From: Bacilli bacterium
Lineage (GTDB): Bacteria > Bacillota_I > Bacilli_A > RF39 > UBA660
Assembly: GCA_022009835.1 (NCBI GenBank)
Contig: CP091726.1
Coordinates: 1,163,678-1,195,677 of the forward strand
DNA length: 32,000 nt
Reading direction: 5' to 3'
Below, piece after piece: positions 10,436-18,159 of the stretch (position 1 is the first letter of the stretch; each line of letters begins with the position of its first letter). A program made the position numbers and the translations under genes. Below the pieces are notes generated by a model. That model saw only the letters and a program-made list of their open reading frames with translations. It searched no databases and had not been told where the DNA came from.

Positions 10436-10472
10436 TCAAAAAAATCAATAATTTAAACTATTGATTTTTTCT
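10436..10472 (-). terminator. A/T-rich hairpin terminator at the 3' end of the AAA-vWA operon
   Basis: On the minus strand: AAAAAATCAATA-gtttaaat-TATTGATTTTTT. It overlaps the vWA stop codon and is followed by a T-run. It is AT-only and therefore weak. Confidence 0.4.
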
Positions 10473-11980
10473 TGATTTTAATTTTACAATTATATACCCT
10501 TTCAAATTGCTTTTCATCTATATAAATAACCTTGCCACCATTTGGATAAATTTTTCTATTTCCAAATACTATCCATATTGCATTGAGTGGCATACTTGGC
10601 ATTTCAGCGTATCCATCAGTAAATATTATTTTATTTTCTACTCTCTTTGTAAAAGCATTAACAGCTACGTTAAAGTCTGTTCCTCCATAACCTTCAAACT
10701 TCATCTCTTCTATATCCTTCTCAGTTCTAATATCATGAAAGCCATAAAATTCATCATCAAAACATCCTACTTTTACTCTTGAGTGTTTTAATATATTTTT
10801 ACATTCTCTTAAAAAGTTCTTTAACAATACTTCATTTATAGAGCCACTTGTATCAAGTACAATTTCAGTTTCAGGCATTGGCTGTTCCTCTAAATTAGCA
10901 ACTACAACACCATCTTCTAATGTAGCATTTTTATAAGACCAATCAACATCATACTTAATTGCCTCTCTTAAAACATAACGCCAATCAATTAATGGTTTAG
11001 CAGTACCTATATCATTAACTGTTCTAATATCTCTATTCGTTGATGTACCTGCTTGTGATGCTTGTTTTGAAATTGCCTCTTTTAATTCTTCTAGCTGTTT
11101 TTTCTTATCTTCAAGGTTCTTTTTAAAAGCATCTTTTTCTCCCATACTTTCAAGTTCTCCCTGTTTCTTTTCAAGTTCAGTTTTCTCTTTATCTTTTTTA
11201 TCAGTTTTTTCTTGTTGTTCTTTATGTTTTTTTACTGCTTGTTCCCACATACTGTGAGTATCATGCCCAACATCTTGTTTTGATTTATCTTCTTTTTGTG
11301 AATCTTCACCAGATTCACCACCACTCTGTTCTTGTGATTGTTTTTTTTGTTCTTGTGAACTTCCACTACCTGAATTACCTTGCTGTGGTGATTGAGATTG
11401 TTGTTGATTATCACCACTTTGTCCTCCATCACTACTTTGCTGTTTACTTTCTTGATTTTGTGTTTCTCCATTATCTTGTTGTGATTGAGGTTGTTGTTGA
11501 TTATTTCCACCTTGACTACCACCACTACTTTGTTGCTGATTACCTTGTTGATTTTGTTGACTATTACCTTGTCCACTTTGTTGTTTTTTTCTTGTAATAA
11601 TTTTTCATATAATTGTTCAGCATCATAATTAATAGCTTCTGCCATATCAACAACACCTGGTGCCATTTTTAAACCATCTCGTTTTAAAAATTGATTAATA
11701 ACACCATCAGTAGCAATATTCCATAATTCAGGATTCTTACCTTCACTTCTTAATATATGATTGAATGCAATATGACATACTTCATGGGCAAATATAAAGG
11801 TTTGTTCCTCAACACTCAATCCCTCTAAATATTCCGGATTATAATATATTGTTTCTCCATCTGTACCTGCCGTTGGTATATCTTTATTTTCTTTATAACC
11901 TACACTTGCTACTACACTCCCAAAAAAAAGGGATATTTAACAAGCATTTTTCTTTTTAATGCCGCAATATCATATTTCAT
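10453..11980 (-). CDS. HExxH metallopeptidase / vWA-like fusion protein (DUF2201-type); cassette gene E
   Basis: ATG at 11980..11978 follows GAGGTG.
- N-terminus: 'PTAGTDGETIYYNPEY...FIFAHEVCHIAFNH...WNIATDGVINQFL' (HExxH)
- Linker: a long Q/G/S/N-rich stretch
- 'DTHSMW' motif
- vWA domain with the MIDAS motif 'VLDTSGS'

Frame changes are needed at the A8 run 11922..11929 and the T7 run 11584..11590. Confidence 0.8.
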
Positions 11981-11990
11981 AATTTACACC

Positions 11991-12389
11991 TCAAATTCGT
12001 GCAACTAATGAGAATACTTCTTCGCTTATCTTATCTTTATTTATTTCATTTGCAGTAACAAGTATTACACAATTTTTTTTAGGTAATTCAAATGTAGATA
12101 TTTTTCCTATGTTCTAATAATTCGCAAAAACTTTAATTGCTCCTCTTTAGAAATCGAATCAATTTTATCAATTACTAATATTCTACTGGCGTTTGTACTT
12201 AATATTTCATTAAGCCATTTAGGAGGCATAAAATCTGTCCCATCATAATGACCATTTAATTCCTTAACATCAATGTTAGCAGGTAATACAACTGCTCCAT
12301 TTAAGTCTTTACCAGATATAAAATCAACTAATACAGGTGCAACATTTGCTTTAATATATGATAATAATATTTCTTTCTTGTTTTTCCAT
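11991..12389 (-). CDS. small Walker-A-less AAA-like protein (~132 aa); cassette gene D
   Basis: ATG at 12389..12387 overlaps the gene C stop (TAATG). After correcting three +1 breaks in 5-nt homopolymers the product reads 'MENKKEILLSYIKANVAPVLV...MPPKWLNEILSTNASRILVIDKIDSISKEEQLKFCELLEHRKISTFELPKNCVILVTAN...'. This aligns with the Walker-B-to-sensor-1 half of genes A-C but lacks a P-loop. Confidence 0.5.
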
Positions 12390-16212: not shown

Positions 16213-18105
16213 TTTATCACCTTAACTTTTCCCCTAGTTAATTTTGCTTCAGCAATTAATTCAAGTCTTCTTTCATCACCATGACACCATTGTAAGTCAA
16301 ATAAAGTGCAATACTCTTCCCCAAGTACAGACATAATAAAATCTCTTACCTTTATTAAATTATCTTCATCTACTTGTGTTAATCCTATAATTATCGCATA
16401 TTTTTTTGGCTGTATTTAATGAATGCATATCATCAATCGTATAATTATCATCTAAAACATCTTCGAGTGTAATTACTTTTTGATTACAAAATACTGCAAA
16501 CTCTTTTGTTATATCTTCTCCTACTAGACTTCTAAGCATTTCTGGATTACCCGCCTTATAAAGCATTTTTGATGCCATTTCCCATTTTCTCGGATCAGCA
16601 TTTGGTTTTTCTCCATTATATTCACTTCTTAAGGCTTTTTCTCCTTTAAATGCGATGTAAGCATAAATTGCTGGATGAATATTATTTTCGCTTGCCCATT
16701 TTAGCCAATTTTCAGTTGTTGTTTTTATGTAGACATGAGCAAATCTATTAAATAAAGGCTCGGCTAGTTGATTTGCAGCTAACGAATCTTTCATATCATT
16801 ACCTGCTGCTACTATTCTAGCATTATCTGGTAATTTCCATATACCATTTACTTCTCTATCTAATACTATATTAAAGGCTATACCCTGAATACTTGGTAAA
16901 GCATTTGTTATCTCATCAAAGAATACTATGTGTAGTTTATCTGGCTCACTTGTACATTTTTCTTCTATCTTTTTAAGCCAAGAAGGTTTAATATCTATCA
17001 TTTCACCTGTACTTTGATTATAGACACTTTTACCATTTAAACTTTCAGGTGTTGCATTTCTTAAATATATTATTTCACAATTAGGATCTATTTGCTTAAC
17101 TCTAGCAGATTTACCTTCACTAGATGGTCCATGTAAGAATACAGCAACACCACTTTCTATTGCACCTTTAATAATATCCTCTTCACTTACTTCAGTAAAA
17201 TCTAAATTATAAGGATTTTTCTTCAAAGTAGGTCGCTTAACTCTTGTTTCTTTAACTTCTTCTTTTACTTCTTCCACTTTAATAGTTAAAGGTATTTTTA
17301 AATCTGAAATAATATCTGGTAAAAAATAGTTCTTCATAAACATCTTAATATCAGTTTCTTCAAAACTTTCAATACTAGTATCATAATGTGCAAATTGTAT
17401 ACCTGAAAATAATATTCTCTCTGAAATAGCAACATCTGCTTTAACATCTACTAACCAAGTTATTGGCTCAACTTTTATCCAGTATCCAGTTTTAGCCAAC
17501 ACTGTAGAAGAATTGGATAATGTACTGCCTACTGTTCCAACATCTCCTACAACTCTAACATATCTATTTCCATTATATTCATATACATAGTGCTCCTTTG
17601 CTTTAAAGAAACTATCTTCATCTTCTGTAGAAATAGAATCTGTTGTATATTTACCTACAATTTTTAATTTTCCTTTAGAAAATTCATTTTCTAATATGCT
17701 AGATATAACATTAGATGCTGCCATTTGGGGATACATTCCAAAATTAACAGAAATAACTCCATTTTCTAATGAATGATCATTTTCAGTAAATGATTTTATA
17801 CTTAAATATGGTAAAACTACTCTAGAGCCATAAAATCTAAGCCAAGAGTAATCATCATAAGTCGCATCATAGCCATTTATAATTTTAATACGGTGAGTAT
17901 TAATTTCTGTAATTGTTTTAGTCCAATAATACCCTTTATTATATGAAAAAGTAGTAGAATCATCAAAAGGAAGTTCTGTAATTCCACCTAATAAAATAGC
18001 AAAATCACTTATTTCTGCATGTATATGATCAAATTCAAATATCTTCAATCTATTTTCTCCATATATTTGTTCCTCAGTTAAAAAAGTTATATCATCTTTA
18101 TTCAT
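16209..18105 (-). CDS. DUF6273-like x2 / MoxR(AAA_5)-type ATPase fusion; paralog A, with a divergent N-terminal module
   Basis: Start ATG at 18105..18103 follows GGGGGAAG, giving 'MNKDDITFLTEEQIYG' in parallel with B and C. The 597-aa ORF ends early at the T7 run 16401..16407. One nucleotide fewer restores a C-terminus collinear with paralog B ('...GEEYCTLFDLQWCHGDERRLELIAEAKL'), stopping at 16209..16211. Confidence 0.8.
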
Positions 18106-18130
18106 ACATCTTCCCCCACAAGTATCGACT

Positions 18131-18159
18131 ATTATAGCACAATAGATTTTTTTTTGCAA
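18131..18159 (-). promoter_or_regulatory. sigmaA-type promoter of the AAA-vWA operon
   Basis: On the minus strand: TTGCAA, a 17-nt spacer, then TATAAT with the extended -10 (TGcTATAAT). It sits ~25 nt upstream of the gene A RBS. Confidence 0.55.

Follow-up and report, generated by a model that had tools for sequence, protein, structure and literature searches.

An operon of gut Bacilli that joins variable heads to MoxR-like AAA+ ATPases: a proposed conflict machine with probable traces of retroelement diversification

We analysed 32,000 nt of the genome of a Bacilli bacterium (contig CP091726.1, forward-strand positions 1,163,678 to 1,195,677), hereafter called the window. The subject of this work is an operon on its minus strand, in which five co-directional genes, A to E, run from 18105 down to 10453 and were pieced together from three reading frames (Table 1). 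Genes A, B and C encode fusions of a divergent head with an AAA+ ATPase, D encodes a small paralogue of the ATPase core, and E encodes a peptidase-like protein with a vWA domain. There is good support for placing the operon in a family of cassettes that is common among uncultured gut Bacilli and in which one to several fusion proteins are followed by D and then by E. The original prediction, made from the letters of the sequence, had described the five genes and their junctions, and both are present: ATGA overlaps connect A with B (16212-16209) and B with C (14313-14310), TAATG connects C with D (12391-12387), and the gap of 10 nt before E includes GAGGTG. The 3' hairpin that had been predicted is also found. 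As for the operon having its own promoter, TTGCAA-17-TG-TATAAT does lie upstream of gene A, but such a match is not statistically distinctive: promoter-like matches are not enriched in the AT-rich window (48 found versus 57.7 expected in shuffled sequence).

In the raw window, frameshifts split all five genes into more than ten open reading frame (ORF) pieces. We compared the window with L001, a human-gut metagenome contig of the same species (97.9% identity, 15.7 kb aligned). It turned out that 84 of the 93 indels are insertions of 1-3 nt in the window. Nearly all the insertions lie in homopolymers reading 5 or 7, and the flanking housekeeping genes are affected at the same rate. Uninterrupted genes of 631, 630, 641, 130 and 500 amino acids are found on human-gut metagenome contigs (L001-L004, L085 and L086). 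Intact 641-residue orthologues of C (P0001-P0005) are 97-98% identical to it; the intact 631-residue orthologue of A is found in L001 and L086, and the intact 630-residue orthologue of B in L001, while L086 does not carry B. Because the indels sit in homopolymers and the orthologues of 97-98% identity are uninterrupted, we read the frameshifts of the operon as sequencing or assembly errors and treat its genes as intact. It is very improbable that the operon of this genome is a dead pseudogene array with real frameshifts. Every operon gene is interrupted in the window sequence, as such an array requires, but the interruptions are of a kind that is equally frequent in the housekeeping genes, and five independent assemblies of the same species have the genes uninterrupted. 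The over-calling of homopolymers extends over 2515-18257, and likely over the whole window, and fragments nearly every gene there, including gerA, gerC, an SDR gene and the operon. These genes resemble pseudogenes but almost certainly are not, judging from the sequence comparison, and the frameshifts of the window should not be annotated as such.

Table 1. Positions of the operon and of the features around it, numbered from the first letter of the window.
Feature	Position	Strand	Details
Gene A	16209-18105	-	631 amino acids once corrected; divergent head and AAA+ ATPase; one homopolymer frameshift near 16407
Gene B	14310-16212	-	about 630 amino acids once corrected; head and AAA+ ATPase; at least 5 homopolymer frameshifts within 15380-15540
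Gene C	12389-14313	-	641 amino acids once corrected; head and AAA+ ATPase; one frameshift near 13982
Gene D	11991-12389	-	130 amino acids once corrected; predicted AAA+ alpha/beta core paralogue without P-loop; Walker B degraded to DKID
Gene E	10453-11980	-	about 500 amino acids once corrected; DUF2201_N zincin-like HExxH putative peptidase, Q/G/S/E/K-rich linker, DUF2201 vWA-like domain with complete MIDAS
Promoter-like TTGCAA-17-(TG)TATAAT upstream of gene A	18131-18159	-	10/12 matches, extended -10
A/U-rich terminator-like hairpin over the stop codon of E, then U run	~10433-10478	-	-13.5 kcal/mol, z = -3.7; 1 of 200 shuffles folds as well
Walker A GPSSEGKS	13286-13309 (C), 15207-15230 (B), 17107-17130 (A)	-	motif search
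HEVCH of E	11772-11786	-	motif search
DTSGS (MIDAS) of E	10840-10854	-	motif search
Variable region of gene C, encoding ...VCGVNLNGNRFLRYRYLRNGAVRPAL	14001-14080	-	matches L005 template repeat; columns with almost all entropy among 120 homologues
Decayed variable-region relic of gene B (ends ARPILQ)	15909-15962	-	54 nt versus L010 template repeat: 7 adenine and 8 other mismatches
Second E-like gene remnant (C-terminal vWA fragment), next to tRNA-His	9324-9490	-	88-94% nucleotide identity to 10549-10749; 81% amino acid identity
Direct repeat copy 1, duplicated 5' end of gerA and its upstream DNA, just downstream of E	10132-10410	+	98% identical to copy 2, spacing 8092
Direct repeat copy 2, true 5' end of gerA and A-gerA intergenic region	18224-18501	+	
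tRNA-His, downstream edge of the variable region holding the cassette	9185-9260	+	
157-residue ORF between the operon and the E remnant	~9537-10004	-	intact in L001 and L086

The C-terminal halves of A, B and C are about 95% identical and the N-terminal halves are divergent. The original prediction had assigned the C-terminal halves to the AAA_5/MoxR class of ATPases. The motifs on which it relied are confirmed in all three proteins: Walker A, Walker B VFFDEI, sensor-1 IVAAGN and PLFNRFA. Over 41 aligned ATPase sequences (40 bacterial and one from a phage) Walker A, Walker B and sensor-1 are nearly invariant, and Pfam AAA_5 is the most frequent match, being found for 40 of the 41. The three ATPase genes with intact motifs share their operon with a vWA gene, E. 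In the PHROG search the ATPase matches phrog_1297 ('ATPase') at 1e-47, and E matches phrog_1314. A MoxR-like character of the ATPase is supported by the AAA_5 matches below threshold, by phage homologues that pass the threshold and by the partnership with a vWA protein, and not by any match of the window proteins above the threshold. When the ATPase-only profile was compared with PDB sequences at E <= 10, just marginal matches to a sigma-54 activator and NSF were obtained (E >= 0.05). Foldseek with the full-length AlphaFold2 model, in which the head is confident and the ATPase poor, returned MCM, McrB and MoxR (2r44), all of them non-significant.

Gene D had been described as an AAA fragment lacking Walker A, and profile comparison agrees. 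In hhalign, the alignment of D matches residues 320-468 of the ATPase alignment with a probability of 91% (E = 1e-6), with a gap of 12 residues exactly at the P-loop and a degraded Walker B. None of the 688 homologues of D has a Pfam domain. That D is a catalytically dead, P-loop-deleted paralogue of the ATPase core is well supported by these alignments, although its dead state is predicted from the sequence.

The assignment of E to an HExxH peptidase joined to a vWA domain was also upheld. The fragments of E in the window match DUF2201_N at 2.2e-29 and DUF2201 at 2.3e-14 in Pfam, and the intact orthologue matches them at 2.8e-36 and 1.5e-13. HExxH and the complete metal-ion-dependent adhesion site, MIDAS (DxSxS, GGT, TDG), are conserved in 43 diverse E orthologues, and E itself has HEVCH and DTSGS. 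It is therefore well supported that E is a DUF2201 zinc-peptidase/vWA protein, in which the peptidase is putative. The length of the linker rich in Q, G, S, E and K varies across E orthologues, so that the protein has from 381 to 611 residues. Near 11158, in a low-complexity stretch of this linker, the window carries an in-frame insertion of 21 nt when compared with L001. In the window, as in L001 and L086, what is left of a second E-like gene is found between tRNA-His and the operon. It is probably a relic of an older copy of the cassette.

Each head begins the fusion protein with two beta-rich modules, and the original prediction regarded them as two DUF6273-like domains. This did not hold: the window heads have no match to DUF6273 (PF19789) at E <= 10, and the matches found in the family fit one permuted domain with an insert. 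DUF6273 was matched by 17 of 53 diverse heads, one of them above the gathering score (29.8 versus 23.5 bits). The match always places residues ~55-98, in module 1, on profile positions 126-168 of 172. Published variable regions of phage diversity-generating retroelements (DGRs) map to the same C-terminal part of the DUF6273 profile (PMC11792537). DUF6273 is a C-type-lectin-like domain and is subject to diversification by the DGRs of gut phages. The start of the profile was placed by one weak match on the distal end of module 2. We swapped the modules in silico, and about half of ten sequences then gave a single collinear alignment over profile positions 5-170; one sequence without any DUF6273 match in native order gave one after the swap, and the permuted C orthologue matched at E = 0.083. 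Judging from these alignments, the head appears to be one circularly permuted DUF6273-like domain with a beta-rich insert, not two tandem DUF6273 domains. Module 1 would be its C-terminal half, which contains the variable region (VR), and the distal part of module 2 its N-terminal half, with the beta-rich insert, EYGEYPQ...YEEYEYQGKKYIR, between the two halves. AlphaFold2 models the head confidently: its per-residue confidence (pLDDT) is ~85-94 in the full-length model, and the template modelling score (pTM) is 0.81 for the 232-residue head of B. Foldseek returned two DUF6273 viral proteins for the head at E 0.5-0.8, which is a hint at most.

The origin of the head variation became apparent in sister lineages. 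On contigs with a single-copy C orthologue (91% identity), a gene matching RVT_1, the profile of a reverse transcriptase (RT), lies directly upstream. On one of them, L005, an 80-nt repeat between the RVT_1 gene and the upstream ORF matches the end of module 1, and the two copies differ mainly at adenines of the upstream copy. A scan that took one genome per species gave 75 loci. Nearly all their hosts are uncultured gut Bacilli, labelled Tenericutes, Clostridium sp. CAG:417, Coprobacillus sp. CAG:605 or Candidatus Faecisoma; distant versions of the cassette without D are found in Clostridia such as Zhenpiania hominis. In seven loci (L010, L016, L024, L029, L030, L033 and L056) all 10-14 mismatches per locus between template and target fall on template adenines. 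Pooled over all pairs of template and VR, the mismatches number 238 at A, 29 at T, 25 at G and 21 at C. In sister lineages a complete element lies right upstream of the cassette; in L010 it consists of a bAvd-like protein (E = 1.4e-5), the template repeat and a 353-residue RT (RVT_1, 1.2e-16) with the motifs LGNQSSQ and YMDD. Its template repeat is 80 nt long, and the reading frame is rich in AAY codons (VRAVNKNGNRNNKYRYKRNGAVRPDL). The best phage match of this RT is that of Phage nd12 (42% identity, 6e-73), a 'tentaclin' phage whose DGR targets bear an N-terminal DUF6273 variable domain (PMC10743442).

Shannon entropy was calculated over 120 close homologues of C and is near zero outside ~14 columns of module 1. 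By template codon, it is high for AAT, AAC and AAA, low for AGG and TAT, and zero for GGT and CGC. The ~14 codons give a theoretical VR repertoire of ~3e13 proteins. VR variability tracks the integrity of the RT. In the L010-like lineage, where the RT is intact, the VR is different in every member; in the L005-like lineage, where the RT has an internal deletion of ~300 nt, it is essentially identical in ~45 members; and in the lineage of the window, which has no RT, it is nearly constant in five members. Since template and target differ at template adenines and the variation is confined to ~14 codons of module 1, we read the head as a DGR target. It is well supported by these comparisons that module 1 has been rewritten in sister lineages by what is predicted to be adenine-specific mutagenic retrohoming. 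The L005-like element is a naturally inactivated DGR. In this most widespread single-copy lineage (L005-L009, ~9330-9375), with one protein on 77 contigs, the template has drifted at non-adenine positions. Other arrangements also occur. In L073 one DGR serves two diversified targets. L034 (4699-18461) has three tandem units of two ATPase genes, D and E without an RT. L040 (8554-17962) has a DGR and one full cassette, followed by three more ATPase genes with identical VRs; these extra copies may have arisen by recent duplication or may reflect a collapsed assembly.

We searched the window heads for the same footprint. The VR of C is orthologous to the diversified VR of the sister lineages, and its mismatches are biased to adenines: of the 13 that separate it from the L010 template, 10 fall on template adenines. 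Gene B has a shorter and decayed relic (Table 1), and gene A has no similarity to any template repeat. Apparently, the lineage of the window has lost the DGR, at least in cis, and head diversity is fixed as three tandem paralogues, of which C keeps the footprint of adenine mutagenesis, B has a decayed one and A retains no trace. The original prediction of variable, sensor-like heads on an invariant ATPase was correct as far as the divergent heads and the nearly identical ATPase halves are concerned, and it missed the cause, a DGR variable region in module 1. It is well supported that in each fusion protein a helical linker lies between a variable head, predicted to bind a ligand, and an AAA_5/MoxR-like AAA+ ATPase.

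The number of ATPase copies varies from 1 to 5 between strains, and the genomic contexts differ. RT state was compared over the 58 loci whose upstream sequence extends for 2.5 kb or more: the RT is full in 12 of them, decayed in 11 and absent from 35. An RT is missing from 6 of the 7 multi-copy loci and from 29 of the 51 single-copy loci, counts too low to establish a connection. In L086 the flanks are those of the window (gerA on one side and the SDR gene on the other) and the C gene is 97% identical, but there are just two ATPase genes. Because the extra 1.9-kb unit of the window maps twice onto the same L086 sequence, the comparison indicates that the copy number has probably changed by unequal recombination between the near-identical ATPase halves. 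The polymorphism among homologues that the original prediction led one to expect is thus seen in the copy number and in the absence of B from L086. These sequence comparisons support the view that the operon is not part of the core genome. Its expected location in a defence island was not confirmed, as the flanks contain sporulation and metabolic genes.

A direct repeat of 280 bp brackets the operon. Its first copy forms a stray ORF of 79-81 residues in L001 and L086, which matches the first 78 residues of GerA. The repeat looks like the result of single-crossover (Campbell-type) integration or of a tandem duplication, and recombination between its copies would delete the cassette. The 157-residue ORF downstream of E has no Pfam match, is unrelated to the cassette proteins and was seen in this lineage only. 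Elsewhere in the window, ~2.4 kb at 24436-26807 have no counterpart at the equivalent position of L086 and make a second strain-variable spot; its ORFs look coaD-like, MBL-fold and LysR-like, as assigned by eye from translations and not by a profile search. tRNA-Leu and tRNA-Met lie at 26918-27085.

Homologues of the ATPase were found in 733 phage records, mostly of N4-like Schitoviridae and PA5oct-like jumbo phages. With 25.6 bits, the ATPase of Acinetobacter phage nACB1 exceeds the AAA_5 threshold, and the second gene downstream of it encodes a DUF2201_N+DUF2201 protein. The order in this phage (L087, 3471-6254), which is a MoxR-like ATPase, a 137-residue ORF and DUF2201_N+DUF2201, mirrors that of ATPase, D and E. 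The 137-residue ORF was considered as a counterpart of D and rejected, having no detectable relation to it. Because the phage homologues pair with a nearby DUF2201 gene, the ATPase-DUF2201 pair would seem to be an old two-gene module. In the N4-like and jumbo phages this phrog_1297/phrog_1314 pair has an ATPase core homologous to that of the cassette (25-30% identity, E down to 4e-26), whereas the phage ATPases have no N-terminal head and the small gene in between is not detectably related to D.

These relatives raise the question of whether the operon is a domesticated or remnant phage module that either works in a phage-like way, for instance in superinfection exclusion or particle assembly, or is simply decaying cargo. 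Phages would then be the source of the ATPase-DUF2201 pair as well as of the DGR and its DUF6273 head. This agrees with the two PHROG matches, the many phage records, the nACB1 gene pair and an RT closest to those of gut-phage DGRs, as well as with the direct repeat that brackets the cassette beside a tRNA gene. However, cassette relatives were absent from the 2.9 million IMG/VR viral contigs scanned, blastn of the locus against phage and plasmid collections gave no match, and in the loci examined the flanks of the cassette contain no genes for phage structural proteins, integrases or lysis. The proteins have more than 3000 homologues and are strongly conserved in sequence across many species. 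We therefore consider a phage module unlikely.

Several known systems share parts of this composition. The closest in content are the VMAP ternary systems of cyanobacteria and gammaproteobacteria, DGR-linked vWA-MoxR loci that have been read as conflict systems (Kaur et al. 2020, PMC7159879; Doré et al. 2024, PMC10907252). They too combine a DGR-diversified lectin-type sensor with a MoxR-like AAA+ ATPase, a vWA protein and a peptidase, and their loci also undergo duplication and modular turnover. In contrast to the cassette, where the variable domain is DUF6273-like and N-terminal on the ATPase, theirs is an FGE/CLec domain at the C-terminus, in most cases of the vWA protein. Their third protein, VMAP, comes with a trypsin- or caspase-like effector, whereas Pfam scans of all five products and their orthologues found no VMAP-family domain in the cassette, which places a DUF2201_N zincin peptidase on the vWA protein and has a P-loop-less AAA paralogue. 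The hosts of VMAP systems are multicellular bacteria and those of the cassette are small-genome gut Bacilli, with no DGR in this window. The CLec-AAA DGR targets of candidate phyla radiation (CPR) bacteria (PMC10907252; the P-loop and Midasin-type targets of Wu et al. 2018, PMC5758913) likewise fuse a variable domain to an AAA-type NTPase, in a product that is presumably cytoplasmic. In them, the NTPase is upstream and the VR C-terminal; the RT clade, VR class and partner genes differ, and no DUF2201 partner has been reported.

DUF6273 heads with variable regions near the 5' end are already known from the DGR targets of gut phages (PMC10743442, PMC11792537). These tentaclins of nd4 and nd12 and targets of Faecalibacterium prophages belong to the same domain family as the cassette head, with the VR at the C-terminal end of the profile, and it is the RT of phage nd12 that the cassette-family RT resembles most. 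They are phage receptor-binding or virion proteins with Ig-like stalks, whereas the cassette head is circularly permuted, contains the beta-rich insert, is fused to an ATPase and is encoded in a chromosomal operon. In the searchable literature we did not find an ATPase that itself carries a permuted DUF6273-like VR head at its N-terminus, nor a DUF2201 peptidase-vWA partner or an operon-encoded P-loop-less AAA paralogue in such a system, nor gut Bacilli as hosts. The original prediction had named no characterised system of this composition. That is right for the exact architecture and has to be narrowed in view of the DGR-diversified MoxR-vWA and AAA sensors cited above. We therefore rate the theme of DGR-diversified NTPase/MoxR-vWA systems as already known and this particular architecture as new.

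Our preferred reading, to which we give a probability of about 0.6, is that the operon is a gut-Bacilli cassette of fusion ATPases, D and E, whose head has been diversified by a DGR in sister lineages and which has lost the DGR here; we propose that it works as a conflict machine. A number of results weigh against this. The 32-kb window contains no RT (in tblastn with the L005 fragments and the intact L010 RT), no template repeat and no avd, so that it holds no complete DGR. Three of the mismatches of C and most of those of B fall on non-adenine positions. The involvement of a DGR at the window locus would thus be historical or in trans, as suggested by orthology and by the 10-of-13 footprint. 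AAA_5 stays below the Pfam threshold on the ATPases of the window and on other bacterial ATPases (15-17 bits with a cut-off of 22), the full-length profile of the ATPase matches nothing among PDB sequences at E <= 0.01, and the AlphaFold model of the ATPase part is poor (pLDDT 30-60). Circular permutation of the head rests on modest-scoring profile alignments. Foldseek with the head model of pTM 0.81 gave no match at E <= 0.001 in PDB or BFVD, including the known DGR lectin-fold proteins Mtd and TvpA; Foldseek depends on residue order, and a circular permutation could hide a match. The lectin-fold assignment of the head therefore rests on sequence and the literature. Finally, PADLOC (PADLOC-DB 2.0), run on seven protein fragments, and NCBIfam found no match, and the neighbours are not defence genes; known defence models thus lend the originally predicted immune module no backing.

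Some of these results would suit a housekeeping function. RavA-ViaA, NorQ-NorD and CbbQ-CbbO, like the cassette, have an AAA_5-like ATPase gene beside the gene of a MIDAS vWA protein. The operon could encode a maturation chaperone of this kind, with a fixed client and with heads that are ordinary substrate adaptors, and both its chromosomal site among sporulation and metabolic genes and the lack of a PADLOC match agree with this. However, a fixed client would give no reason for a dedicated retroelement to hypermutate the adaptor, as it does in the sister lineages. Copy number and context also vary among close strains, and classical vWA partners do not have the HExxH peptidase that is conserved in E. 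The classical pairs have neither a variable head nor an inactive AAA paralogue, and the similarity to them is below threshold. We find such a chaperone quite improbable.

The proteins A to E have no signal peptide and no membrane segment, and the machine is therefore taken to be cytoplasmic. From the sequence, the head probably binds a cytoplasmic ligand. According to the conflict-machine reading, the head would bind a ligand that varies and is most plausibly a phage protein or that of another invader. The AAA+ ring, perhaps including D or capped by it, would couple binding to ATP-driven remodelling, with D as a structural or regulatory subunit. E may use its MIDAS vWA domain to dock on the ATPase, in the way of the vWA proteins that partner MoxR ATPases. 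The HExxH peptidase of E would be the output, cutting the bound target or a host protein.

Heavy diversification together with rapid loss, decay and duplication favours fast-evolving non-self ligands, by analogy with other loci, and an immune function of the operon would be plausible. The head might instead tune a regulatory or proteolytic pathway to changing self or environmental ligands with no invader involved. DGR-diversified intracellular signalling proteins have been interpreted in this way, as for the DGR targets of cyanobacteria (PMC7517822), and neither a defence-island context nor a match to known defence models speaks for immunity here. But the closest architectures, with a DGR, MoxR, vWA and a peptidase, have been read as conflict systems (PMC7159879, PMC10907252), and rapid loss, decay and turnover of paralogues are typical of arms-race loci. 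We regard non-immune recognition as rather unlikely. Going further than the conflict-machine reading, we suggest tentatively, and at well under even odds, that the family represents an undescribed cytoplasmic machine of programmable recognition. In it, a DGR would write up to ~1e13 specificities into a permuted lectin-like head on an AAA+ motor, the motor with the dead AAA paralogue and the vWA-tethered zinc protease would capture and destroy invader proteins or respond to them, and in lineages without a DGR, such as this one, duplication of the sensor-ATPase gene would preserve a small, hard-wired repertoire.

The cassette is very common in human-gut metagenomes, with thousands of clusters at 90% identity and one variant on 77 contigs. 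Anticipatory immunity through DGR-diversified intracellular NTPase sensors has been proposed without experiments and mostly for multicellular cyanobacteria and gammaproteobacteria, and the cassette offers a tractable example from the human gut. Its architecture is simple, with the variable head on the ATPase itself and with a zinc peptidase, the presumed effector, tethered to the vWA partner. Lineages with an intact DGR, with a decayed DGR and without a DGR coexist in one family and provide a natural experiment. In the lineages without a DGR, the expansion of paralogues may be a substitute for somatic diversification.

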